Part shown: positions 14,993 through 63,373 of the stretch, in pieces | How the letters are laid out: each line of letters starts with the position of its first letter | How positions within the stretch are numbered: position 1 is the stretch's first letter | IMG/VR virus record: IMGVR_UViG_3300014038_000199 | DNA length: 64,000 nt | Source: a virus | Taxonomy: Duplodnaviria; Heunggongvirae; Uroviricota; Caudoviricetes | Strand: one strand, 5' to 3' | Notes under the pieces: generated by a model | Seen by the model: only the letters and a program-made list of their open reading frames with translations | Told to the model about the DNA's origin: nothing | Database searches by the model: none | Position numbers and translations under genes: made by a program

Positions 14993-17137
14993 ATGCTAAA
15001 GACAGCTATATTAGTATGTAAGCAGTCTAAAATAAGATTAAAGCATACAAAATCTTATAGGGCTATTACAGAGAAAGAGTTTTTAAGGTTTATGGAATAT
15101 GATACTTCCATAAACCTTGGTATCATAGAGATAGATAAAGATGCTACTGATGAAGTCATTGGTAGCATAATAAAATTGGTAGACTATTGTGAGTCCAATT
15201 TGAATAAAAGAGTTATACTAATGTCTTATAAGAGTGATGTTAGTATGGATTATGTTGCTTATAGTGTAACCGAGTTACAAGAATTGATAGAGGCTGAAAC
15301 AGGCTATGATGTAAGTACATATATAAAAGAAAGTTTATTTGATGAACAGCAAGAAGTTCAGGTATCTCAAGTAGAGAATGATTTATCATCTATTGCTGAA
15401 TTTGAGATACCTGATGAAGAAGAGAAAGAAGAAGAGAATATAGAGGTCATCAAGATTATCAAAAATATAGAAGAGCGTAATATAGAGAATGAAAAGATTA
15501 AAGACCTTGAGATGATAATTGATGACCTCAAAGAAAAATTAGATAAATCAGTAAGCGTTAATGCTGAATTAGAGAGTACAAGAGAAAACTTATTAAAATC
15601 GAAGAACGAAGCTGATAATGAAATTGTTAGATTAACTTCTGAATTAGAGTCTAATAAGCATAAGATAGCGGAGTTAGAGAGTAATAACTATGCTGGAGAG
15701 ATTGAAAGGCTTGTTAAAGAATTAGATAGTTATAAGATAAAAGTATCAGCTTTAGATGAAATAGAAGATAAACTCAGGGAAATAAATAGTCTATGTGATG
15801 AAAAAGACAAAACTATCAAAGACCTTGAGAATAGCATAAAGGACATTGAAAAAAAGGATAGAAGAAATGAGATAGTATTAGAATTAAATTCAAAAAGAGC
15901 AGATACTATTAGGTTTATAGATAAAATCTATGTAGACCTCAAAAATACCATAAATGTTCTTAAGACCAAAGATAGTGAATTACATGAAGCTTTAAGAGAA
16001 GTTAGGGAATTGACCGATGATTGTAATTCACTTAAAGAAAGTTTGAATAGTGCAATAAGCAGAGAGAAAGATTATACAAATAAAGAGGTTAAATATAAAG
16101 AAAATATAAGTTTATTAGAGTCTAACTTAGATAAATTAGGGGAGGATTACAGTAACTCTAACAGACTTTTAGAAACATATAAATCTAAGGTATTAAGTGC
16201 TGAAGCTTCTATTGCTCAAAGTGATGTGATAAAAACTAAGTTAAGCATTACTGAAAAAGAGTTAAAAGCTAGGATTGCTGAAATTGCAGATAAGGACATT
16301 GAAATTAAGAGATTAAACTCTAGTGTTAATACTAAAGAGGTGATAACTATTGGGGTTGATAAAGTATTCAGTTCTTTTGAATATAAAGGGAATGCTAAGT
16401 TAATAACTGTGTTTGGCGGTGGCAGTTATGGCATAACTAACATAGCTTATTCAATAGCCAATAAGTTAAAAGGCAAGGTATTGTTTTTAGATTTTGACTT
16501 ATTTAATCCAAAGTCTGATAAATATACTAAGAAAAATCCAATGGTAAGTGTAACAGGTGTACCTAACAATTTGTACAGAACTGGTGTAGGTGTATTGTAT
16601 AGTTGTGGCATAGATAAGTTTATAAGTGAATATGATAAGCTTGTTATAAAAGTTCTGAAAATAAAGGAACTTGAGTTAAGTTGGATAAGCGGATTGTATT
16701 CAATATTAAAGTTAGAAAATTTAGATTATACATCTGAATTTTTTAATTATATAGGTAGTTTATATGATTATATAATAATAGACTCTGGTAAATTAGGGTA
16801 TTCTAATATAAATAACAGCTTAATTAAGAGTTTATGTGAGGTCAGCTATAAGAATTTAGTAGTATCAAGTAATGATACTGTAAGTATAAGGGGAATCGGA
16901 TTAGCGTTAAATAAAGTTAAGTTATCTAATGTAGATTGGATATTAAATTTAAGTAACAATTCTATTATAAGCGATAAAGCTAAAAAGAGTATCGGAGACA
17001 GTTCATATTATATATTACCTTTCAGTAATTCTATCTTTGGTACTGATAAATTGATAATAGACGATAATAATATAGATGGAAGATTATCAGCTTATCTTAG
17101 TAAGTTTGGATTGGAGGTAAATAAAGTTGGATTATAA
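14993..17137 (+). CDS. TadZ-like protein with three parts: REC-like N-terminus, long E/K-rich coiled coil, and a C-terminal Lys-less MinD/ParA-like domain.
   Basis: Heptad-rich charged region covers roughly residues 130-440. C-terminus has VFGGGSYGITNIAYSIANKL and IIIDSG, paralogous to the 6409 protein and the C-terminus of 60914. Confidence 0.45.
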   Translation: MLKTAILVCKQSKIRLKHTKSYRAITEKEFLRFMEYDTSINLGIIEIDKDATDEVIGSIIKLVDYCESNLNKRVILMSYKSDVSMDYVAYSVTELQELIEAETGYDVSTYIKESLFDEQQEVQVSQVENDLSSIAEFEIPDEEEKEEENIEVIKIIKNIEERNIENEKIKDLEMIIDDLKEKLDKSVSVNAELESTRENLLKSKNEADNEIVRLTSELESNKHKIAELESNNYAGEIERLVKELDSYKIKVSALDEIEDKLREINSLCDEKDKTIKDLENSIKDIEKKDRRNEIVLELNSKRADTIRFIDKIYVDLKNTINVLKTKDSELHEALREVRELTDDCNSLKESLNSAISREKDYTNKEVKYKENISLLESNLDKLGEDYSNSNRLLETYKSKVLSAEASIAQSDVIKTKLSITEKELKARIAEIADKDIEIKRLNSSVNTKEVITIGVDKVFSSFEYKGNAKLITVFGGGSYGITNIAYSIANKLKGKVLFLDFDLFNPKSDKYTKKNPMVSVTGVPNNLYRTGVGVLYSCGIDKFISEYDKLVIKVLKIKELELSWISGLYSILKLENLDYTSEFFNYIGSLYDYIIIDSGKLGYSNINNSLIKSLCEVSYKNLVVSSNDTVSIRGIGLALNKVKLSNVDWILNLSNNSIISDKAKKSIGDSSYYILPFSNSIFGTDKLIIDDNNIDGRLSAYLSKFGLEVNKVGL

Positions 17138-18799: not shown

Positions 18800-19021
18800 A
18801 TGAAAAAGTTTGCGGTTTATTTTATAAACAGTAATAAAAAGAGTTGTGTACTTTGCTTAGAGAATGATTATGATACTGCTCAAGTTAAGTACAAGATATA
18901 TAACAGATTGGGAAATGTCAGGATACATGAATATGAGAGTAATACTTCCATAGATGAAGATTTGGAAAGTTTATTAGAATTAGAAGATAAGATAGACAGT
19001 TTAGGGGGCGTTGATGAGTAG
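18800..19021 (+). CDS. Small hypothetical protein.
   Basis: ATG at 18800 with an aggagg RBS is preferred over the track start at 18782. Confidence 0.3.
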   Translation: MKKFAVYFINSNKKSCVLCLENDYDTAQVKYKIYNRLGNVRIHEYESNTSIDEDLESLLELEDKIDSLGGVDE

Positions 19022-19889
19022 AATACATTTGATAATAGATTTTATGCCTTTGTATTATAAGTACTTTTTTAAGTTAAAATGTGGGAAACTTTCTAAATTA
19101 AGTTATAATGATTTAGACACTACTTATTTATATTACATAACAAAAGAGATAGAAGATTCTTGTAAATTGGTTTCTAAAGATAGAGAAAACATTTTAATAA
19201 GTGTTTGTTTTGATTCTAAAGGCAGTAAAAGAAAAGAAATAGATACTAATTATAAGAGTAATAGGGATACGAACCTTGAGAGTTATGATTTTGACATGAT
19301 AGATAATTTTATATACCCTATATTTGATAAACTATATGACTCTTATAAATTGGATGGATATGAGGCAGATGATATAATAGTAGGTTTAGCTAAGCATACA
19401 GATAATTTTGATAAGATTTATGTGATGTCACCTGATAAAGACTTGTCTCATCTGATAAATGATAAAGTCAGTTGTATTAAAAATTCTACAATGAACAGTA
19501 GTAAATATATAGTTGATATGTATAGCTATGAGGATATATTGACTAGTAAACTTGGAGCAAGAATACCTTATAATTCAATCTTATTATATCTATGTACTGT
19601 AGGAGATAGCTCAGATAACATTAAAGGAGTTAGCGGTTTTGGTAAATCAGCCTTTAATAAATTAATACTAAGCAATAAAGAATTTGATTATTCTTCTTTA
19701 GATACAAAAGATAACATACTTAAGTTTTTAGAGAGTATATTTGATGGAGATAAGTTAAGTCAGGCTAAACATAGTTTAGATTTAGTATATCCTTTTGATT
19801 TAGAAATAGAATTAAAGGATTCAAATTCAGATAGAGATGTCAAATTTAAGGAGTTTATGGCTTATGGATTCAAAAGTTTAATTTATTAG
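19011..19889 (+). CDS. 5'-3' exonuclease / flap endonuclease (PIN plus H3TH), T5 D15/Pol I 5'-exo type.
   Basis: N-terminus IHLIIDFMPLYYK (LLLVDG.SLAFR-like). GYEADDIIVGLAKH matches the EADDVIATLA motif. TVGDSSDNIKGVSGFGKSAFNKLI matches the H3TH LVGDSSDNIPGVPGIG motif. Confidence 0.7.
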   Translation: MMSRIHLIIDFMPLYYKYFFKLKCGKLSKLSYNDLDTTYLYYITKEIEDSCKLVSKDRENILISVCFDSKGSKRKEIDTNYKSNRDTNLESYDFDMIDNFIYPIFDKLYDSYKLDGYEADDIIVGLAKHTDNFDKIYVMSPDKDLSHLINDKVSCIKNSTMNSSKYIVDMYSYEDILTSKLGARIPYNSILLYLCTVGDSSDNIKGVSGFGKSAFNKLILSNKEFDYSSLDTKDNILKFLESIFDGDKLSQAKHSLDLVYPFDLEIELKDSNSDRDVKFKEFMAYGFKSLIY

Positions 19890-25618: not shown

Positions 25619-26827
25619 TTGTATAACATAGATTCTAATATAGATAAGCCTGATTTTAAGTTTTTATTTGAGGAAATAGATAATTTAGTTGGTGGAAAAG
25701 GTTTAAGACTTAGTAATAAGATTTTTGAATTAAAGAATAATTTATTTAAAGAGGTAAATAGTTTAAGTGCTTTTATAGTCAGTCAATATAATATAAATAA
25801 CCCTAATTCACCTGCTCAGGTTTTAGAGTACATAAAAGAGCATTTAGACTTAGACCTGTTAAAGTATTGTACTGATGAAAAAACGGGTAAGATAAGTTCA
25901 AGTAAAGAAAATTTAATTAAGCTTGCAAGTTTAGGAAATACTTTTGCAAGTGATTTATTGAATTATAGAAAACATAAAAAGCAATTAGAGTATATAGAAT
26001 GTTTATTAGGTAGTTGTGACAGATATGGTAGGATATTTCCTGATGTTAGTTTAGGTACTACAAATAGGATAAATTATACAAATCCGCCACTAATGAATAT
26101 ACCTAAAGACATATTGTGGGATGTTTTAGCTCCTAGAGCAACTGGAAATTACTTAGTTAGTGTGGATATAAAAAATCAAGAGCCAACAGTTTTAATAAAC
26201 TGGCATAATATAACTTGTTTGAAAGACAAGTTAACATCTGATAGGGGATTGTATTTTGAGATATTTGTTGAGATATTTAATAGAGAGCCAAAAGATGATG
26301 AATTAGCGGAGTTAAAGACGACCTGGTTAGCTTTGAATTACGGAGCAACTAAATTCGGTATATCAGGTATATGTTCTCTTATAGACAGTAATTTGATTTA
26401 TGATTATTTTACAAGCATAAAAGAAATTAAGAGGTATACAGGTAAAGCTTATGGATTAGCCAAAAATAAGTGTAGGAAAGCATATACTTATTTCGGAACA
26501 GAGTTAAAATTAGATGCTAAAGATTTATCTCAATTAAAAAGACAACATTTGGATTTTCCTATACAGGGCACTTGCAGTGATATATTGTCTCTGCTTGTAA
26601 AAAGATTTAGGGCATATATAAATACATATAAATTAGGAAATAAACTTAGTATATATTATACAAGACATGATGAATTGATAATAGAAGTAGATAAAGATTT
26701 TTATGAAGAAAGAAATACCAATAAAGATGAAGATGAAAACATATATTGTTTATTAGGGGAAATACTTAATCATAAAGTAGATGATTGGATTGAGTTCAAA
26801 ACTAAGATAGCATTAGTCAAATCATAG
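25619..26827 (+). CDS. Compact family-A DNA polymerase, polymerase (fingers/palm) domain only.
   Basis: SPAQVLEYIKEHLDL (Pol I SPKQL..ILFEKLGL-like). Motif A LVSVDIKNQEPTVL (DYSQIELR-like). Motif B KTTWLALNYGATKFGIS (K..NFG..YG). FPIQGTCSDIL (QGTAADI). Motif C YYTRHDELIIEV (HDE). TTG start with an aaggag RBS. Confidence 0.7.
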   Translation: MYNIDSNIDKPDFKFLFEEIDNLVGGKGLRLSNKIFELKNNLFKEVNSLSAFIVSQYNINNPNSPAQVLEYIKEHLDLDLLKYCTDEKTGKISSSKENLIKLASLGNTFASDLLNYRKHKKQLEYIECLLGSCDRYGRIFPDVSLGTTNRINYTNPPLMNIPKDILWDVLAPRATGNYLVSVDIKNQEPTVLINWHNITCLKDKLTSDRGLYFEIFVEIFNREPKDDELAELKTTWLALNYGATKFGISGICSLIDSNLIYDYFTSIKEIKRYTGKAYGLAKNKCRKAYTYFGTELKLDAKDLSQLKRQHLDFPIQGTCSDILSLLVKRFRAYINTYKLGNKLSIYYTRHDELIIEVDKDFYEERNTNKDEDENIYCLLGEILNHKVDDWIEFKTKIALVKS

Positions 26828-26851: not shown

Positions 26852-27856
26852 ATGCCAAAGAAATTTGCGGTAATGACAAGTAAAGGTATATTTTACATAA
26901 CTAAAGTAGTAAGAGAAAAAGTTAAGTTAGCAATTCCAATGTTAACAGCAGCTTTTATAGTAATGGGTGCTGGATTTACTATAAGTGAATCTGAACTAGT
27001 CGCCTTAGCAGCCTCTCCTAATATTAATGTTACAGTTAATGCTGGTAATGATAATGATGGAAAGATGTACTCTGATAATTGGAGGCTTAATGGAGCCAAT
27101 AATTGGGAATATTATGATAATGGAAATAAAGTTACAAATGCTTGGATACAAGACCATAATCATTGGTATTTAGTAGATGAAAGCGGAACTATGAGAGTGG
27201 GGCTTTATAAATCCTATGATAAGTATTATCTGTTAGATGATATCAGAGGAACTGGAACTTATGGAAAGCTATTAAAGAATGGCGGAACATATCAGGGAAT
27301 TACTATATCTGCTGATACTTCTTCTGATTACGAGGGAGCATTAACTGAAGATACATTAAACAGATTAGCTAGTGTTGGTGTAAAGAGAGATAATGCAGTT
27401 AATGTTACAGGTACAGCTCATAATACAAATAATGGAACAGCTCAAAATCAAGGAAATGGTAATGTTTGGGATGTTAATCAGTATAAAGGAGATGGACAAA
27501 CTCCAGTAAGAATAGTTAGTAATAGAGAGGGTGGAAATATATTAACTGGCATATACGAAGATGGAAGATATTATTGCATAGGAAATGATGGTAAAAAATA
27601 TAAGAGACATCCATTTTCTACTACTGCTAGATATTTTCCAAATGCAGAAGATTTTCTAGCTTCAGATTGGGCTAAGTATTTAGATACTGGAAAAGTAGCT
27701 CCTGATGGTGGTTTTTACTCTAGGAGTAATATAGCTGGAGAAAGGGTGATATATTGGAATAGTTCACTTGATGGTGGTGATTTTGGTGGAAGTGCTATAC
27801 CAATGTATTATAAGGCTGATGGAGTTGCAGTATCAGATAAATATAAAGACTATTAA
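26852..27856 (+). CDS. Secreted protein with cell-wall-binding (choline-binding-type) repeats.
   Basis: N-terminal signal/TM. Repeat NAWIQDHNHWYLVDESGTMRVG fits the CW_binding_1 pattern. Confidence 0.5.
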   Translation: MPKKFAVMTSKGIFYITKVVREKVKLAIPMLTAAFIVMGAGFTISESELVALAASPNINVTVNAGNDNDGKMYSDNWRLNGANNWEYYDNGNKVTNAWIQDHNHWYLVDESGTMRVGLYKSYDKYYLLDDIRGTGTYGKLLKNGGTYQGITISADTSSDYEGALTEDTLNRLASVGVKRDNAVNVTGTAHNTNNGTAQNQGNGNVWDVNQYKGDGQTPVRIVSNREGGNILTGIYEDGRYYCIGNDGKKYKRHPFSTTARYFPNAEDFLASDWAKYLDTGKVAPDGGFYSRSNIAGERVIYWNSSLDGGDFGGSAIPMYYKADGVAVSDKYKDY

Positions 27857-27934
27857 AATTGTAAGATATAGTAATACTATAATTACTGCAACAAAGGAAT
27901 CTATATTAAAAAAGCAAACAATATAACTACGGCA

Positions 27935-29745
27935 GAGTAGAAACTTATAGCAAAGAAGTGAATTAAAGAACTATTATGTCATAGAAACCTATAGTAAAGA
28001 AGTGGATTATTAAATAAACATTATATTGTCAGGTAGTACTGTGAAGTAGCTTGCTGAAAAGAGTAAACATCTAATATAAATTAGCAAATACTAATTATAA
28101 TGAATTACTAGGACAGAAAAATCAACCTATGATTGTCTAGTGTATAACTATATAGGAAAATAAACCTATTGAAGAGAAGTGAATTACTTTGAAAGCTGAT
28201 TAACCTAGATCCAATAAGTGAACTACTAATCAATGAAAGTAAGATTAAAAGAGTATATTATATAAACTATTAAATCTGAGTAACTAAGCAAATTAATTAA
28301 TCCTTTGTAATAAAGTGAATTACTACACTATCAAAGAAACCTCCAGAGATTTAGTGAATTATTAGTAAAAAGTAATTTTAGATAACTAAGTAAATAGCTA
28401 TTAGTAGAAAGTAACCTTAAATAGACAAGTGAATTACTAGTGAAACCTAGAAATCTGTAAATGTAGAGTGAATAAGTTATAGATTAAAAGAAAAATTATT
28501 AAAAGAGTGCATTACTAAAATAGGCTAGAAAACTATTGTCTGAAAGTGAGCTAATTAAGTAATGAAATTAACCTAACGATATTTAGTGAATTAACTAGAA
28601 TTGCAAAGTAAACTACTTCAAAAGAGTGCATTAACTATTAAAGTGCAGTAACTAAATAAATTAACTAGGGGTCTCCAGTAAACAGAAACAGGGAGTGAAC
28701 TAACTTAACTACTGAATTATAGTAACCTAACATTACAAAGTGAATTAGCAATAAACAACAGTTTAATTTTTAATTAAAAATGAAAAATAATTCAAAATTC
28801 TAAAGTGAATTAGTTTTGTATTAAAAATAAGAAGAAACCTATGTATGCCTAGTGTAGTTTATACTTAATTAAGTAAAACAATTATTAATTATATTATATT
28901 AGAAAACTAAACAAAAAAAGTGGGCATATTGAATAATAATTTAATTAAAATACCTTAGAAAACTAAAACAAAAAGTGAACACATTATATATTAAGAGAGT
29001 GAGTTAGCTATGATAATCAAGTAAACTAGCGATGATTAGCGAATTAAATTACTAAAAATACAAAGAAATCTAACCTAGTTAAGTGGACTTTATATATTAA
29101 TGATTTAAGTAATGGTGAAATTTTATATAAGCGAAGAGTGAATTACTATGGTATAAAAGTAACCTAGATACATTTAGTGTATTAACTACAGCTTTCGAGA
29201 AAACTGGGATAGAAAAGTGAATTACTATGAATTCTAAGTAACCTCAAAAAGCATAGTGAATTAAAGTTTAACTTTATGAATGAAGAAACCTAATGCAAGT
29301 TAGTGAATTAAATAAAAAGAGAATTGATAGAAGTTTAATTGTATGAATTAAGAAACCTAATATAATGTAGTGAATTAACTAGAATTGCAAAGTAATCTAT
29401 TGAAAAAAGTGTATTAACTATAATAATTTAGAAAACTACACAAAAAGAGTGAGTTAACTACAATACATTAGAAAACTAAACTCAAAGAGTGAACATATTA
29501 ATATCACAAAAAACTTTATTACAAGAGTGAATTACTAATGCTGAAGAGAAACCTACTTTATATTAGTGAATTAGTTTAAGTAAATCTTATTGAAATTGAA
29601 AAGAAAAATATAGAATTAAAGTGAATTATAACTAATATATTAAAGAAAACTGTTTTACTCTAGTGAATCAATTACATATTATTAAATTATAAAAGGCTTA
29701 TATATTAAATATAAGCCTTTTAATATTATAAAGTGAAAAATAAAA
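27935..29745 (+). repeat. Iteron/centromere-like array of about 46 degenerate direct repeats with a ~39-bp period, in a 1.9-kb ORF-free region.
   Basis: The core AGTGAATTA (variants AGTGAACTA, AGTGCATTA, AGTGAGTTA, AGTGTATTA, AGTGGATTA) recurs in a single orientation. Spacings of 38-41 bp occur in long runs, for example cores starting near 28427, 28467, 28506, 28545, 28584 and 28625, and near 29369, 29408, 29447, 29487, 29526 and 29565. Each unit also carries a sub-core (G/T)AAACCTA or AGAAAACTA about 12 nt after the core. No ORF longer than 60 aa on either strand. Confidence 0.85.
29693..29719 (+). other. Perfect 11-bp stem-loop (AAGGCTTATAT-attaa-ATATAAGCCTT) at the distal edge of the repeat array.
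   Basis: Exact inverted repeat. It is followed by AT-rich sequence rather than a clean T-run, so it could be a terminator, an origin hairpin, or a protein-binding palindrome. Confidence 0.5.
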
Positions 29746-29782: not shown

Positions 29783-30766
29783 ATGAGTAAATATATTTTA
29801 AGAGATGTGTTAGATGCCTTATACGATATGCAAAAACTTCGTATAGCGAGTGGTAATAGGTTATATCAGATATTTAAGGATAAATCTGATGCTGACACTG
29901 CTATTTTAGAAGAGATAGAGAAGGAAAAGCAAAATAATGGGGAAGATAAAGAGAATGATGTTAAAGCTGATGCTCTGTTAAAATCTATAAATTCAGAGTA
30001 TAAAGAGTTGACAGCCTATATGACCGAAAATAATAAGACAATAGCTTCAGCCTTAAAGAAGATTGAAACTATTAAGATATTAACTAAGACAGATTATAGT
30101 ATGGTTAGGGCTTATAATCTGTTATTGGAATCAGAAGAAAGTTATAAAAAGGTGTTAGAGTCAACTATCAAAGAGCATCCTGTATGCACAGGTTTTTTGA
30201 ATAATATAAAAGGGTGCGGACCGATGATGAGTGCAAACATAATAGCGTATTTAGACCCTTATAAAGCCAGACATGCCTCTAGTTTCAGAAAATATGCTGG
30301 TTTAGATGTAGTTCCTACTAAGGATAAAGAGGGTAATTTTATGTTTGATGAAGAGGGTAATATGATTACCCATGGAAGAAAGATGGCAGATACTGAAAAC
30401 TATGAATACATAGATAAGAACGGCAATAAAGCTATCAAAAAGGGTATTACATATAATCCAAAGTTAAAGTCTAAATTAATAGGAGTTTTAGCGTCTGGTA
30501 TAATCAAAGCTAAAGACCCTGTGTATACAAAGATTTATTATGACTATAAGATGAGATTGGAAAACCACCCAAAGCACAAAGACAAGTCAGCAGCTCATAG
30601 GAATAACATGGCATTGCGTTATATGATACAAAAGTTGCTAAGTAACTTATGGGCTTATTGGAGAGAACTTGAGGGATTAGAAGTAACAGAGCCTTATGAG
30701 GTTGCAAAGTTAGGAATGAGACCACATGGGTTTAACGATGGAGATAATAAAAAGAATACAAACTAA
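29783..30766 (+). CDS. Helix-hairpin-helix protein resembling the C-terminal (Transposase_20) domain of IS110-family transposases. Candidate array-binding or initiator protein.
   Basis: GCGPMMSANIIAYLDPYKARHASSFRKYAGLDVVP fits (G.G...A..I.A..gd...F.......YAGL.P). Downstream HGRKMADTENY ... KKGITYNPKLKSKL ... YYDYKMR ... KHKDKSAAHRNNMALRYMIQKL matches the IS110 C-terminal pattern. The N-terminal 130 aa lack the DEDD/RuvC-like motifs. Confidence 0.4.
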   Translation: MSKYILRDVLDALYDMQKLRIASGNRLYQIFKDKSDADTAILEEIEKEKQNNGEDKENDVKADALLKSINSEYKELTAYMTENNKTIASALKKIETIKILTKTDYSMVRAYNLLLESEESYKKVLESTIKEHPVCTGFLNNIKGCGPMMSANIIAYLDPYKARHASSFRKYAGLDVVPTKDKEGNFMFDEEGNMITHGRKMADTENYEYIDKNGNKAIKKGITYNPKLKSKLIGVLASGIIKAKDPVYTKIYYDYKMRLENHPKHKDKSAAHRNNMALRYMIQKLLSNLWAYWRELEGLEVTEPYEVAKLGMRPHGFNDGDNKKNTN

Positions 30767-40862: not shown

Positions 40863-41960
40863 ATGAGAGTAGAGTATATGAAAAATATGTTGATTGATAG
40901 ACTTATAGGGTTAGATTATATATACCATAGTGATTTTATAACCAAAATGAAAAATTATATTTCAGATGAAGAAGATATAGATAAGTTAAAGGATTTAGAT
41001 GGCTTCGTCACAGATAGGGTATACCTAGATTATTTTAAGGACAACATTCAAGAAAAATTAGCTGAACATTCCATGTCTATTTTTGAGATAAAAAATATGA
41101 TTAAAAATAGTAGTGAGGTTGGTATAGGGGAGAAAGAGAGTGTTTATTTGGGGAGAGATTTTTTATATAGGAGAGATTTTAATTCAGGTGTAGTAGAAAA
41201 AGATATAGACAAAGTTAAAGTTGCTGACAATTATAAAAATGCTGATAGCTGTGCAGAAGATGAACAAGATGAGATAGACATAGACTTAAATGATGAGGAT
41301 AGCGTAGATTCGGATAGTTTATACGATAATGAAGAAGATGACAGCGACTCAGATGAGATAGACATTAACTTGGAAGAAGATGACTTTGAAGAAGATGACT
41401 TAGAAGAAGATGACTTATTAGAAGAAGATGACTTAGAAGAAGATGACAGTGAAGAAGAGGATGAAATAGATATAAACCTAGAAGAAGATGAAGATGACAT
41501 AGATTTTGATTATGAAGATAGTGATTTTTCAGGAGATGACAGTGAAGAAGATGAGATAGACATAGACTTGGAAGAAGAGGATGAAGATGACATTGACCTA
41601 GAAGAAGATGACAGTGATGAGATAGATATTGACTTAGAAGAAGATGAAGATGCCATTGACCTAGAAGAAGATGAGGAAGATGGTGAAGATGATATAGACA
41701 TTGACCTAGGAGAAGATGACAGTGATGATATAGACATAGACCTAGAGGATGATGAAGATGATATAGATTTTGACTTAGAGGATGAAGAAGAATATAGCAT
41801 AGATACAACACATAGTAATACTCCAAAACCTAAAGAAAACAAGCAACAGCATGAAAATAGAGTTAAAGAAAAAGTATTTAATAATAATTTTTCAAATAAT
41901 ACTTGGGATATACTGAACGGAGCGGTAGATGGGGTATCAAATCTCTTTAGGAGAAAATAA
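40863..41960 (+). CDS. Highly acidic tandem-repeat protein (IDIDLEEDED / EEDDLEEDD repeats).
   Basis: Residues ~120-300 are almost entirely D/E with periodic I/L. Good RBS (aaggag). The minus-strand ORFs 41231-41842 are mirror artefacts of this low-complexity DNA. Confidence 0.5.
   Translation: MRVEYMKNMLIDRLIGLDYIYHSDFITKMKNYISDEEDIDKLKDLDGFVTDRVYLDYFKDNIQEKLAEHSMSIFEIKNMIKNSSEVGIGEKESVYLGRDFLYRRDFNSGVVEKDIDKVKVADNYKNADSCAEDEQDEIDIDLNDEDSVDSDSLYDNEEDDSDSDEIDINLEEDDFEEDDLEEDDLLEEDDLEEDDSEEEDEIDINLEEDEDDIDFDYEDSDFSGDDSEEDEIDIDLEEEDEDDIDLEEDDSDEIDIDLEEDEDAIDLEEDEEDGEDDIDIDLGEDDSDDIDIDLEDDEDDIDFDLEDEEEYSIDTTHSNTPKPKENKQQHENRVKEKVFNNNFSNNTWDILNGAVDGVSNLFRRK
41230..41800 (+). repeat. Low-complexity coding repeat (gaagaagatgac-type units).
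   Basis: Degenerate 12-30-bp repeats encoding EEDD/IDIDLEE blocks. Confidence 0.6.
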
Positions 41961-59641: not shown

Positions 59642-60917
59642 TGAGAGATTAAAGCTTAACAGAAGTAGGGATAAGATGTTTATCCCTATGAATGTTGAGG
59701 GTGGTGGATACGATGAAAAGTTCTTAAATACCACAAAGATATTAACTATAGTAAGTATAGCTGTAACTTGGGTAGTTGTTGTAACTTGGTTAAATTCCTT
59801 GCAAAATGCTACTATATTATTCAAGTTTATAAGTTTATTTGTATTATTTTTTATAACATCTTTGTTAGTAAGGTTTGTTATTTTTGAAGAGAGTTACTTT
59901 TATAAGATGTATAAGAAAACACTAACTTATAAAAACCCAACTAGTGATGTATTTTGGAACATATCAAGTATTAAAGATACACCTAATGGTTCAATCCTTT
60001 TATTTTCAGACTTAAAAATTGGTGTTTTAATTAAATTAAAAAGGGGTTCAATCATAGGAAAGAATCAAGATTTCAGAGAACAGCATTACGATGCTGTTTC
60101 TGATTTCCTTAGTGAGATAGTAGGTAGAAGATATAGCTTTGTTCATTTGAATATGATGGAAAGAGCAGATAATGATGATAGATTAGACAGGTTAGGGCTG
60201 TTTATAGGTCAAACAACCAATCCAAACATGAAAAGGTTACTTGAATTACAGCTAGGGCATTTAAGAAACACTACTAGAAATGGTTTATATGAGAGTGATT
60301 ATTATTTAATCTATACTGACAGAGCGGATAGGTTAGATAGCATAATGAGGGATATAGAAGATTGCCTTGAATTTGTTTTAGATGGTTCTTATACAGGATA
60401 TTTTGAGTTAGATAAGAAAGAAACAGTAGATGTGCATAAAGAATTAATAGGGGTATCCTATTTTGATTATAATAATGCTACTGTAAATACTTTTAGGGAG
60501 TATCAAATTGATGATAACCCTGCTATAACACTTAAAAAGTTAAATTTAGCTAATGGTTCTGTAATAGAATTAAGTAAAAATGATGATGCATTTTTAAGAA
60601 AGTTAGCATCAGATATAGATGCCAATAATTATTCTGATATAGCTGTATTAAAGAAATTAACTGATAATAGAAATATGGATTACAGGTTAAGGTCTAATAT
60701 AGATTTAGAGAAGTATAATAAAAAAGAAACTAAGAGCAATAAAAACAAAGAGATAAACATAAATTTATTAGATAATATTGATTTAGTTTCATTAGAAACT
60801 GAGGAAATGACTAAGAACTTAAGTAATAGTGTTCATAGCATTAAAAAAGAAGAAGAAAGTATAGAAGATTTAATAAACAGTTTAAGTGATGAGGATGACG
60901 AGGAGATAAGTCTATGA
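59634..60917 (+). CDS. N-terminally anchored membrane protein.
   Basis: Start re-assigned to the TTG at 59634, which has an aaggagg RBS and overlaps the upstream stop by 8 bp. Two TM helices (ILTIVSIAVTWVVVVTWL, FISLFVLFFITSLLVRFVIF). Confidence 0.4.
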   Translation: MNSERLKLNRSRDKMFIPMNVEGGGYDEKFLNTTKILTIVSIAVTWVVVVTWLNSLQNATILFKFISLFVLFFITSLLVRFVIFEESYFYKMYKKTLTYKNPTSDVFWNISSIKDTPNGSILLFSDLKIGVLIKLKRGSIIGKNQDFREQHYDAVSDFLSEIVGRRYSFVHLNMMERADNDDRLDRLGLFIGQTTNPNMKRLLELQLGHLRNTTRNGLYESDYYLIYTDRADRLDSIMRDIEDCLEFVLDGSYTGYFELDKKETVDVHKELIGVSYFDYNNATVNTFREYQIDDNPAITLKKLNLANGSVIELSKNDDAFLRKLASDIDANNYSDIAVLKKLTDNRNMDYRLRSNIDLEKYNKKETKSNKNKEININLLDNIDLVSLETEEMTKNLSNSVHSIKKEEESIEDLINSLSDEDDEEISL

Positions 60918-63373
60918 AAATATTAATATGTGCTGGTGATAAAAGTAATAATTTATTAGATGCATTGGGGAAAAAATTTTCTGATGGATCTATAGAGTTT
61001 GATAAAGAGTGTTATGTAAGTGATATAAACGACTATTTGAATAAGGGTGGTTCATTTAATAGGATAGTAGTGACTGCTCAGGCTATTGATAAAGATGGAA
61101 CTTTTGCGAGTAATATAGAATATCAGATGTTTATTATAGCTACTTTAGTTGAAATTCTAAAAGAAAGACAACCTAAGTCAGATTTAGTTTTTCTTTTAGG
61201 GGATAATAACGAACTAGCCGACATAGCATATAATGAGTGTTATTCCTTGGGAGATAGGGTAAGAGTACTTCATTTAACTAAGGATGTTAAAGTAACTGTT
61301 AATTTATTAGTTAAAGTGTGTGTATTGCCTTTTGATAAGATGGATGTTGACATTATAAATACTTACATATACAAAGGAACTGATGTATCGTCTAATATAA
61401 GTGCTACAGTAGGAACTGATAACAACTTTACTAATATGGTTAGAGTAGGAGACTTAGATGAAGAATCTAATGAATTTGATACTACTGAGCCAGGTTATCA
61501 AGATACGGATAATTACAGTGAATTTGATGAGAGTGGATTTGAAGAAGATTTTGATAATACAAATGACTTTGAAGAAGATGACTTTGAGAGTGATGACTCT
61601 ATTGAAACAGATGAATTAGGGGAAGATTTTTATGAAACAGAAGAAATAGAAGTTGATAAAGATGAAAGCATAGATGAAAGTTTATCTGAAGATTATGAAC
61701 ATAATTTTGATGAAGATACAGATGGTATTGAAACAGATTATGAAAGTGATTTTGATACAGATAGCTTTGATACCTCTGATATAGAAGATGAAGCAGACTA
61801 TGAAAGCGATTTTGATACAGATAGCTTTGATACCTCTGATATAGAAGATGAAGCAGACTATGAAAGCGATTTTGATACAGAGGGCTTTGATACAGAGGGC
61901 TTTGATACAGAGGGCTTTGATACAGAGGGCTTTGATACAGAGGGCTTTGACAAATCAGATACAGAGAATTTTGATGGAGATAGCTTTGATACATCTGATA
62001 TAGAAGTAGATGACTTTGATAGTAATGGATTTGATACAGAGGACTTTGATGAAGATAGCTCAGATACAGAGGACTTTGATACAAATAGTGATATTGAAGT
62101 TGCAGATGGAGAATTTGATAGTTCAGATGGTGATACTGACTTTGCAAATGGAGACTTTGATAGTTCAGACGGTGATATAAATAACTTTGATATTGAAGAT
62201 GATAGCAATGGCGTAAACTCTGATCTAGCAGAGGATGATTCTGATACATTCGAGAGTGAAAATGATTTAGCTAATGATTTATTTGATATAGAGGATACAG
62301 ATGATAGTGAAATAGATGAAACTGATAAATTATTTGAAACTGAGCCTGATGAAGCTGAGCCTGAAAATGAAGAAATTGAGACAGAAGATGTTATAAATAA
62401 TATAAGTAATAATAATTCAAATACCAGTGAAGTTCCCAAGAAAAAAAGTTTATTTGGAAGAGCCAAAGAGTCTAAAACATCTAATAATTCGAATGTTTCT
62501 AATAAAACAGACTTAACTGAGTTAAAAAAGATTTTAGATTCTTATAGTAGAAGAGGACATTGTATGCTAGTATCTGGAACTTCTAATAGTGGTACTACTA
62601 CCTTAGCTGGTAATATAGCTAATGTAGTTGCTGGATTAGGATATAATGTTGCTATAGTTGATTTTGATTTAAGTAAGAGAGGACAAACTTATTTAAGTAG
62701 AGATGCTTTTATGGCAGTAAACAGTGATAGTAACTATACAGATACTCTTATGAAAGTAATAAATAATAGAAATTCAAATATAAGTGCTAATAGTGCAATA
62801 GTAAAAACTGGGTTAAATTTATTTGGAACAAGTGTAGAAGAGGATACTCCTAATATAGAAAAGATAGTTAAGAGTCAAAATGATTTAAGGGATTTTATAT
62901 ACAATTTGAAAACCATATATAACTTTATAGTTATAGATAGTCCTATAGATTACTTAGATAAGTACTTATCAGAATTAGTAATATGTTCAGATAGTATAGT
63001 ATTAACTGTAGAGCCAACAAATAAAAGTTTATTAGAGTTTACCATGAACTTAGTAAATATAGAAGAGTATAAAGTAAGCAGAGATATTTTTAGTAGAGCA
63101 AAGATTGTAGCTAGTAAGGATAGTGGTTCTGTTGATAAGATATTAGGTAAAAAATGTAATAATTATAATAGCATGCTAAGATTGTTAGACCAACATATTT
63201 ATGATGTAACTGGAAATGAGACAGGTGGAATGTTTTCTAATTTAAGAGTATCGGGAGTTATTCCTAGCATAGCAAATTTAGATTCATACATATACAGCAA
63301 GGGATATTTCAGCGATACTAAGCTAGGAAAGGAGATGTACTTAAGTGTTTTAAGTGCTATAATGATAGGATGA
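60914..63373 (+). CDS. TadZ-like protein: REC-like N-terminus, long acidic FDTEG/FDTD repeat linker, and a C-terminal Lys-less MinD/ParA-like domain.
   Basis: N-terminus MKILICAGDKS (receiver-like). C-terminus VSGTSNSGTTTLAGNIANVV plus NFIVIDSPIDY. ATGA overlap with the upstream gene. Confidence 0.5.
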   Translation: MKILICAGDKSNNLLDALGKKFSDGSIEFDKECYVSDINDYLNKGGSFNRIVVTAQAIDKDGTFASNIEYQMFIIATLVEILKERQPKSDLVFLLGDNNELADIAYNECYSLGDRVRVLHLTKDVKVTVNLLVKVCVLPFDKMDVDIINTYIYKGTDVSSNISATVGTDNNFTNMVRVGDLDEESNEFDTTEPGYQDTDNYSEFDESGFEEDFDNTNDFEEDDFESDDSIETDELGEDFYETEEIEVDKDESIDESLSEDYEHNFDEDTDGIETDYESDFDTDSFDTSDIEDEADYESDFDTDSFDTSDIEDEADYESDFDTEGFDTEGFDTEGFDTEGFDTEGFDKSDTENFDGDSFDTSDIEVDDFDSNGFDTEDFDEDSSDTEDFDTNSDIEVADGEFDSSDGDTDFANGDFDSSDGDINNFDIEDDSNGVNSDLAEDDSDTFESENDLANDLFDIEDTDDSEIDETDKLFETEPDEAEPENEEIETEDVINNISNNNSNTSEVPKKKSLFGRAKESKTSNNSNVSNKTDLTELKKILDSYSRRGHCMLVSGTSNSGTTTLAGNIANVVAGLGYNVAIVDFDLSKRGQTYLSRDAFMAVNSDSNYTDTLMKVINNRNSNISANSAIVKTGLNLFGTSVEEDTPNIEKIVKSQNDLRDFIYNLKTIYNFIVIDSPIDYLDKYLSELVICSDSIVLTVEPTNKSLLEFTMNLVNIEEYKVSRDIFSRAKIVASKDSGSVDKILGKKCNNYNSMLRLLDQHIYDVTGNETGGMFSNLRVSGVIPSIANLDSYIYSKGYFSDTKLGKEMYLSVLSAIMIG
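61741..61880 (+). repeat. Near-perfect 60-bp tandem duplication (2.3 copies) inside the 60914 CDS.
   Basis: tgaaag(t/c)gattttgatacagatagctttgatacctctgatatagaagatgaagcagacta appears twice with one mismatch, plus a partial third copy. Confidence 0.85.
61871..61945 (+). repeat. Perfect 15-bp x5 tandem repeat (tttgatacagagggc) encoding (FDTEG)5.
   Basis: Five identical contiguous units inside the 60914 CDS. Confidence 0.9.

Follow-up and report, generated by a model that had tools for sequence, protein, structure and literature searches.

A probable dual-repeat TIGR array and its nuclease-free TasA effector gene in a large plasmid-like element

Repeat block and unit structure

Between positions 27857 and 29782 of the 64-kb window analysed here (the whole 64,000-nucleotide stretch of IMG/VR record IMGVR_UViG_3300014038_000199) lies a gene-free block of short direct repeats, followed by a gene whose product resembles the Nop-domain effectors of TIGR-Tas systems. 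This array region contains no open reading frame (ORF) of at least 60 aa on either strand and is the sole gap above 1 kb in the window, whose long ORFs are all on the + strand; the initial annotation, which had singled it out as the only large non-coding stretch, was correct on this point. That annotation placed a PolA-like gene directly upstream, a position actually held by a 334-aa ORF (26852-27856), with the PolA-like gene one gene further. The GC content of the array region is 24%, compared with 30% for the window, and its + strand is A-rich (A 890, T 574, G 275, C 187).

The window has 19 copies of the core motif AGTGAATTA, 16 of them inside the array region, where its reverse complement was not found; AGTG starts number 37 there. 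Two regular runs of AGTG-type starts (28428, 28467, 28506, 28545, 28585 and 28625; 29369, 29408, 29448, 29488, 29526 and 29565) were located within 1-2 nt of the positions first reported, and the second half-site described after each core is also real, beginning as AGWAAMCTA 21-22 nt past the core start. Autocorrelation, which had been proposed as a check, gave 39 as its top lag, and lags 40 and 79 were high too. Tandem Repeats Finder detected a single short piece with a 40-nt period (29403-29493), as most of each unit is unconserved and leaves the program little to see.

To assess the motif spacing, we compared CTA-N-AG counts at spacings of N=3 to 15 with 300 dinucleotide-preserving shuffles. 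CTA-N9-AG was found 43 times in the array region against 4.0 ± 1.8 in the shuffles, beyond what base composition explains, and no other spacing showed comparable enrichment (N=4 gives 10, where the shuffle maximum is 11). Its density is 22 per kb within the array region and 1.2 per kb elsewhere in the window. An 18-position unit pattern, scanned with up to 2 mismatches, gave 23 matches inside the region and 0 outside, and parsing with spacers of 8-10 nt permitted yielded 28 well-formed units. A profile hidden Markov model made from the array units and searched with nhmmer (E <= 1) recovered 30 units in the array region, 25 of them at E < 0.01; the rest of the window gave one weak match (E 0.13), and its minus strand gave no unit. 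The repeats are real and far beyond chance, although the count of about 46 first proposed was too high, at about 30 units recognisable by nhmmer or 37 AGTG starts.

Each unit consists of an edge repeat of 12-13 nt, AGTGAATTA(A)CTA, a 9-nt spacer A, a 9-nt loop repeat, AGWAAMCTA, and a spacer B of 9 nt (rarely 8), for a unit length of 39-40 nt; AG opens and CTA closes both repeats. Across 117 distinct units from four loci, which were chosen by their motif columns with spacer columns playing no part in the selection, information per column was 0.04-0.06 bits in the spacers, ~1.2-1.3 bits in the loop repeat and the 5' edge half, and ~0.8 bits in the 3' edge half; the corresponding figures for the array itself are 0.04-0.15, 1.2-1.3 and 0.8-0.9 bits. 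The unconserved share comes to ~18 of the 39-40 nt of a unit (>45%). Within a guide, the edge halves (ACU with AGU) and the loop ends (AG with CU) might pair, a possibility read from the sequence.

The ~39-bp period described earlier holds within runs (39-40 nt) and breaks down elsewhere, where spacing reaches 44-150 nt because extra sequence separates the two halves of the edge repeat, AGTGAATTA and TTAACTA. The 27 junctions measured 12-13 nt from edge to edge in 10 cases, 15-20 in 5, 28-51 in 8 and at least 67 in 4, the insertions spanning 2-140 nt, and a number of the longer inserts can be recognised as decayed units. Split junctions include 28001-28138, 28217-28313, 28739-28803 and 29082-29136. 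Near-duplicate units also occur within the array (28607/29391, 29284/29351 and 27939/27983).

The two ends of the array are listed in Table 1. Ahead of the first confident unit, a candidate leading unit differs from the unit pattern at 5 of 18 positions and was not reported by nhmmer; a TATAAT hexamer is found at ~27877-27882. At the 3' end, the terminal hairpin initially described as 11 bp has a 14-bp stem, and its 3' arm leads into a U-rich tract (UUUUAAUAUU). Its RNA fold of -15.7 kcal/mol (z -4.3) was equalled by none of 200 shuffles.

The adjoining gene and its relatives

The gene at 29783 had been annotated as encoding a helix-hairpin-helix protein; by sequence and predicted structure it matches TasR and TasH. 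Searching the PDB with phmmer returned TasR chain 9mty_A (E 3.5e-12) and TasH chains (21kl, 9w03 and others; E 1.4e-5), at ~20% identity, and the fold search names entry 9mty as a TIGR-TasR complex with tigRNA and target DNA. Pfam gave one borderline match, Transposase_20 (the IS110 C-terminal domain), and no HNH or RuvC domain. The AlphaFold2 model, built from an alignment of 30 homologues, has a mean predicted local distance difference test score (pLDDT) of 83.8. Foldseek searches of this model against the PDB ranked TasR/TasH complexes in all of the top 11 places, with IS621 and ISCro4 next and weak Nop56/58 matches (E > 1) lower down among unrelated ones. Template modelling scores were modest (0.40-0.58), as would be expected for elongated coiled-coil proteins, and for the predicted model the Tas ranking is unambiguous. 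The model predicts nothing but helices over the N-terminal 130 residues, and TasR aligns from its residue 122 onwards, past its RuvC domain. Because a Tas match is combined here with the lack of a nuclease domain, we assign the protein to the TasA subtype.

Y305 of TasA aligns to SpTasH Y289, which together with H296 is reported to catalyse metal-independent pre-tigRNA processing (PMC13421893). Y305, H315 and 49 further columns are invariant in the 30 aligned homologues, making Y305/H315 a candidate processing dyad. The ratio of non-synonymous to synonymous substitution rates (dN/dS) against three relatives is 0.06-0.08, with synonymous differences at 63-67%; judged from these ratios, tasA is under strong purifying selection. 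Many homologues of 400-450 aa carry an insertion of ~80-100 residues in the Nop-domain beta-hairpin (alignment columns ~290-390), which is absent from the window TasA and its close relatives.

An identical TasA was found on a 76-kb Logan contig that contains the array region. Searching for homologues gave 608 proteins at E <= 0.001; every one of them comes from a metagenome assembly, and none bears a functional name. Relatives at 82-86% identity lie on contigs of up to 305 kb (350 kb within the same 90% cluster), one of them from Human Microbiome Project sample SRS018591. Searches of GTDB genomes, IMG/VR and PLSDB plasmids gave no close TasA relatives, and distant-mode blastn of the array against the phage collection gave no match. 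These 82-86% relatives share the neighbourhood, with a PolA-like gene upstream and a Band_7 gene downstream, and have a gene-free gap of ~1.8-2.1 kb 5' of the tas gene. The gaps hold 24-29 units (at most 2 mismatches) or 29-39 (at most 3) built from the same two repeats; a search for the bipartite unit in related replicons had been proposed as a check.

Comparison of these arrays revealed that repeats are conserved and spacers variable, both within the locus and between related loci. Only 1-6 of 28 units have guides common to the window and the relatives, and these are in colinear order; two of the relatives, L003 and L004, have 21 units in common. A four-unit block (window ~28314-28520) differs from L003 and L004 by few mismatches over ~170 aligned nt and is far more conserved than tasA synonymous sites (63% differing), which could mean that the guides are under selection or that array segments were exchanged recently. 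One unit is half-shared, reading CAGCTTTCG|GGATAGAAA in the window and TTGCCAATT|GGATAGAAA in L004, so that spacer B is kept and spacer A is unrelated. Such half-shared units, together with the near-duplicates, suggest that the array grows by duplication and recombination, not by Cas1-like insertion. A 38-nt insert at ~28362-28399 is missing from the orthologous junction of L003 and L004. The box motifs and the exact 9-nt spacing are retained in four diverged lineages.

More distant homologues also adjoin repeat arrays. A TasA at 60% identity (contig L008) has a 36-nt-period dual-repeat array just upstream, with different repeats; these run approximately AGYGTRCCRTA and AGAAAACCA (L008 5400-5950), on contigs of up to ~198 kb, and the neighbouring genes there, unlike those of the window, are a penicillin-binding protein (PBP) transglycosylase, a RecD2-like helicase and PcfJ. 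In the Ralstonia jumbo phage phiRSL1, ORF034, annotated "transposase", is 35% identical to TasA over 95% of the query. Downstream of it come 1.4 kb without genes, in which short AG...CC(A) repeats alternate (L181, NC_010811.2 13180-15643); this cultured phage thus seems to carry a TIGR array that has gone unannotated. Weaker TasA homologues were detected in Sulfolobales and Acidianus viruses, in line with the published comment that it was an archaeal virus in which arrays of this type were first noticed (PMC12045711).

Table 1 Features of the probable TIGR-TasA locus, related arrays and other genes of the window
Feature	Position	Strand	Note
Probable dual-repeat TIGR array	27923..29674	+	~30 recognisable units; statistics, unit parse, nhmmer
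First confident unit	27923..27965	+	nhmmer E 1.1e-5; 5'-truncated edge repeat ATAACTA at 27923
Possible degenerate leading unit or leader, low confidence	27880..27922	+	TAATTA-CTGCAACAA-AGGAATCTA-TATTAAAAA-AGCAAACAATATAACTA
Canonical 40-nt unit, example	29448..29487	+	zero mismatches to unit pattern
Example unit, edge repeat	29448-29460	+	AGTGAGTTAACTA
Example unit, spacer A	29461-29469	+	CAATACATT
Example unit, loop repeat	29470-29478	+	AGAAAACTA
Example unit, spacer B	29479-29487	+	AACTCAAAG
Terminal variant edge repeat	29662..29674	+	AGTGAATCAATTA; closes last unit
Hairpin, candidate intrinsic terminator	29690..29722	+	14-bp perfect stem, 5-nt loop
Probable tasA, 327 aa, TIGR-associated Nop-domain protein without nuclease domain	29783..30766	+	sequence and structure matches
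Related arrays	L003 3940-6000; L004 4207-6000; L006 4229-6000		
ParA/TadZ-like gene	6409	+	Tad-like module
T2SSE ATPase	7303	+	Tad-like module
ParM-like actin	13707	+	
ParA-like protein, 819 aa	60914-63373	+	

Interpretation as a TIGR-Tas locus and rival readings

TIGR arrays are defined by two alternating repeats of 8-12 nt (edge and loop) and 9-nt spacers A and B (Faure et al. 2025, PMC12045711). They usually have 5-15 units, upstream or downstream of a Nop-domain tas gene, with a mean of ~16 units per dual-repeat array in the TIGRFinder set. Both repeats start with a box D and end with a box C (UG and CCA in TasR arrays), which diverge between systems and covary between edge and loop (PMC12045711). 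Every sequence-level feature of this definition is present at the locus, with AG as box D and CUA as box C, and the truncated first edge repeat, the terminal edge repeat and the hairpin agree with the published description (PMC12045711). Box covariation extends across systems, with AG/CTA in the window, apparently AG at the start of both repeats and CCA at the loop end in L008, and AG...CC(A) in phiRSL1, as parsed by eye in these three systems only. We conclude, with a probability of about 0.88, that the array and the downstream gene are a dual-repeat TIGR array with its effector TasA; as a new example of this known system, it would not be a replication origin or centromere. Neither the core motif nor the related contig and sample identifiers were found in the supplements of Faure et al.

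Two further identities were rejected. A CRISPR array should have one repeat of ~25-36 nt alternating with spacers of similar size, whereas this locus has two different repeats (9 nt and 12-13 nt) and spacers of 9 nt, and the ~40 window ORFs scanned against Pfam or PHROGs included no match to Cas families. Coding in an alternative genetic code was rejected from the sequence, with 39- and 40-nt units mutually out of frame and repeats that hold TGA, TAA and TAG in different frames. The window contains no transfer RNA or transfer-messenger RNA genes (ARAGORN).

The mechanism we propose takes its steps of transcription, processing, dual-strand targeting and repression from published TIGR systems, and starts from features observed here: the architecture, the Tas identity with no nuclease domain, repeat conservation with spacer turnover, and purifying selection. 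TIGR arrays are transcribed and cut within edge repeats to tigRNAs bound by Tas dimers (PMC12045711). By analogy, the + strand would give a ~1.8-kb precursor ending at the hairpin (29690-29722), TasA dimers would bind box D (AG) and box C (CUA) at the ends of both repeats, and the precursor would be cut inside edge repeats, probably by the Tyr305/His315 loop of TasA. The tigRNA would be ~39-40 nt long, 5'-(U)UA(A)CUA-spacer A-AGWAAMCUA-spacer B-AGUGAA-3', and the mid-edge-repeat insertions might be trimmed or left as tails, which would account for the irregular spacing. A template for a long non-coding RNA, among the options of the initial annotation, is essentially right. The 29783 protein, put forward earlier as a binder of the DNA repeats, was the right candidate, but is expected to bind the RNA.

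Spacers A and B of TIGR guides pair with opposite strands, adjacent 9 nt each, with no protospacer-adjacent motif (PAM) (PMC12045711). Likewise, each tigRNA may guide a TasA dimer to an 18-bp DNA site, with spacer A on one strand and spacer B on the adjacent 9 nt of the other. TasA binds target DNA and represses transcription with no cleavage, and both TasA and catalytically dead TasR show tight target DNA binding and reversible repression (bioRxiv 10.64898/2026.09.09.750476; 10.64898/2026.08.11.744272). As no nuclease domain is present, binding here would block transcription or replication and leave the DNA uncut, and the ~30 guides might serve to silence host genes or competing mobile elements or to interfere with them. 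The most likely function, on this analogy, is RNA-guided, cleavage-free DNA binding. TasR cleavage is reported to leave 8-nt 3' overhangs, which implies that each spacer pairs with the 3' half of its strand and that the target reads as spacer A followed by the reverse complement of spacer B; for unit 28326-28352 the predicted 18-bp site is CACTATCAAAAATCTCTG.

Several observations weigh against this interpretation, among them the lack of recognisable targets. We searched for self-targets in both half-site arrangements, with gaps of 0-2 and up to 3 mismatches, against shuffled spacers: spacer-pair counts in the 64-kb window equalled those of the shuffled spacers, and 113 distinct units gave no excess of matches in 116 kb of window and relatives. 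Public collections were scanned for exact 18-mers with gaps of 0-2. Matches were chance-like throughout, with 70 over unrelated phyla in genome_contigs (species-representative genomes), 87 from ~30 independent loci in metagenome_contigs, and 0, 1, 1 and 13 scattered ones in four scans of viral_contigs; a 1-bp-gap match to a prevalent gut RHS-like gene was judged to be chance and rejected as a target. The literature likewise states that target prediction is thwarted by the shortness of the spacers and by gaps in the genomic context. Other discrepancies concern the locus itself. With 12-13 nt, the edge repeat equals or exceeds by 1 nt the upper limit of the published range of 8-12, the unit has 39-40 nt where 36 is canonical, and about a quarter to a third of the array consists of decayed units or insertions, part of it possibly non-functional. 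A strict terminator scan did not call the hairpin at 29690-29722, and a consensus promoter scan revealed no convincing + strand promoter upstream of the array. The processing dyad is only inferred, H315 sitting 3 residues past the position aligned to SpTasH H296.

The lack of targets, in the window and in the window plus relatives, also bears on whether the locus is a decaying relic, an array of TIGR ancestry that has fallen out of expression and use and is gradually being lost. Such decay would fit the irregular junctions (12-13 nt in only 10 of 27, 28-150 nt in 12) and several degenerate units (nhmmer E 0.1-0.8). However, tasA is intact, with its low dN/dS measured against near-saturated synonymous sites, and the Tyr and His of its putative catalytic loop are invariant. 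The 25 units that match the profile at E < 0.01, the box motifs and exact spacing kept in four diverged lineages, and a four-unit block far better conserved than tasA synonymous sites point the same way, and we consider a relic quite improbable. The locus might alternatively be some other RNA gene, its whole transcript acting as a protein sponge or structured long non-coding RNA and not as a source of guides. A purine- and A-rich strand with dozens of short repeated motifs, and again the lack of identified targets, would suit a sponge, yet a sponge needs neither exact 9-nt variable segments nor spacer turnover, the architecture equals that of dual-repeat TIGR arrays feature by feature, the neighbour is a Tas protein, from a family in which RNAs of this kind serve as guides to DNA, and Rfam (gathering threshold) gave no match in the window. 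We give this reading almost no credence.

The initial annotation favoured DNA iterons, that is, double-stranded sites for a replication initiator or partition adaptor, with the block as an origin, a sopC-like centromere or a copy-number sink. Many direct repeats in an AT-rich gene-free stretch would be expected of such a site, ParM-like and ParA-like genes are present in the same window, and occasional TasA-ParB operons appear in the literature. Conservation is nevertheless limited to short AG...CTA blocks around two unconserved 9-nt segments, the units are all on one strand, and the block ends in a candidate terminator hairpin. Close relatives have the same repeats but largely different units, whereas an origin or centromere should keep whole units. 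GC skew, suggested earlier as a check for an origin, is +0.28 to +0.35 in every 8-kb bin of the window and keeps its sign across the array. The block adjoins no Rep or Par gene, its neighbours being a cell-wall-binding-repeat-like ORF and tasA, and the ParM-like, ParA/TadZ-like and putative ribbon-helix-helix genes once named as binders are at least 10 kb away, with nothing linking them to the array. An iteron function is, in our view, very improbable. Guides and partition might still be combined, if TasA and its ~30 guides formed an RNA-guided tethering or partition device that anchors the element to host chromosome sites or to itself. The guides would then work alongside the ParM-/ParA-like machinery, echoing the TasA-ParB operons that are occasionally found and have been published as unexplained (PMC12045711); we rate this idea as quite improbable. 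A TIGR array that supplies TasA with guides for DNA binding is the reading we retain.

Genomic context and comparison with known systems

The genes of the window are mostly unannotatable, and its gene content is plasmid-like. Besides the genes listed in Table 1, we recognised a clamp loader, RecJ, NlpC/P60 and a Band_7 protein; the 714-aa ORF at 14993 had no Pfam match, and the window ORFs scanned had no match to phage structural genes. The PolA homologue (25619-26827, 402 aa) consists of the polymerase domain alone, and a separate 292-aa 5'-3' exonuclease gene (19011-19889) is found 6 kb upstream, a split PolA arrangement. In-frame acidic tandem repeats rich in Asp and Glu, with periods of 15-93 nt, occur at 41368-41803 in ORF 40863-41960 and at 61729-62178 in the N-terminal part of the 819-aa ParA-like protein (60914-63373). 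The ~300-kb size, GC content, at least one human-microbiome source and part of the gene content resemble those of the "Inocle" giant oral extrachromosomal elements (PMC12340149), but this is only a resemblance, and the window lacks the Inocle_004 diagnostic primers.

TIGR-Tas systems have been known only since 2025, and this locus would add a further TIGR-TasA case, notable for its ~30-unit array, its 39-40-nt unit, its split edge repeats and its place on a large plasmid-like element. That element, of ~300 kb, is widespread, uncultured and represented by metagenome assemblies only, with many sequenced variants. The variants form a natural comparative series with the same repeats, mostly different guides, colinear blocks, half-shared units and near-duplicates, and could inform the evolution of TIGR arrays in ways testable with existing metagenomes. 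Once the host genome is known, the ~30 guides would offer a direct route to the natural targets of TasA. For annotation more generally, large iteron-like non-coding blocks beside IS110-like or "transposase" proteins should be checked for TIGR arrays.

Set against known systems, the array shares with plasmid iterons and centromeres (F sopC 12 x 43 bp, R1 parC, P1 incA) its ~40-bp direct repeats and its non-coding, extrachromosomal setting. Iteron units are conserved across the protein-binding site and stand beside rep or par genes, whereas here conservation is missing from >45% of each unit, the repeats keep to one strand and are followed by a candidate terminator, and the neighbour is a predicted RNA-binding Tas protein. 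CRISPR arrays likewise consist of repeat-spacer cassettes, with spacers that turn over between close relatives while repeats are kept; they are transcribed and processed to guides, as is predicted here. They differ from this locus, which has two distinct short repeats and two 9-nt spacers per guide, each predicted to read a different DNA strand, and neither cas genes, Cas1-Cas2 nor PAM logic. IS110 bridge RNAs and box C/D small RNAs (sRNAs) share the homologous Nop-type RNA-binding domain of their proteins and a bipartite guide layout; here there is no DEDD recombinase domain and no fibrillarin or L7Ae partner. The array also lacks the kink-turn consensus (RUGAUGA/CUGA) of box C/D sRNAs, and its guides are tandem, not single.

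Among TIGR systems, stem-loop arrays also flank two spacers with box C/D motifs and have variable linkers between units, like the split edge repeats here. They differ in that both repeats of this array are sequence-conserved and most junctions are short, and the window TasA retains the C-terminal Tyr/His loop, reported as conserved in dual-repeat systems and absent from stem-loop systems. TasR and TasH (TaTasR 9mty; SpTasH 9w03, 9w04, 21kl), its best matches in sequence and structure, have a Nop domain and a coiled-coil fold like the window TasA, which also keeps a Tyr at the position of Y289, the SpTasH processing residue; the window TasA has neither RuvC nor HNH, so that no DNA cleavage would be expected. 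The closest parallels are dual-repeat TIGR-TasA systems, for instance FpTIGR of Flavonifractor plautii (PMC12045711). Compared with systems of this type, the locus has a 39-40-nt unit in place of 36, owing to its 12-13-nt edge repeat, a box C of CUA instead of CCA, ~30 units against the usual 5-15, many edge repeats split by 2-140-nt insertions, and as host a ~300-kb plasmid-like replicon with no recognisable phage structural genes in the window. Common to both are a nuclease-free Nop-domain protein beside the array, two short alternating repeats with two 9-nt spacers and the same box D and box C motifs at their ends, an opening edge repeat that is truncated, a terminal edge repeat with a terminator (a candidate one here), and the organisation of the whole as a single-gene module on a mobile element.

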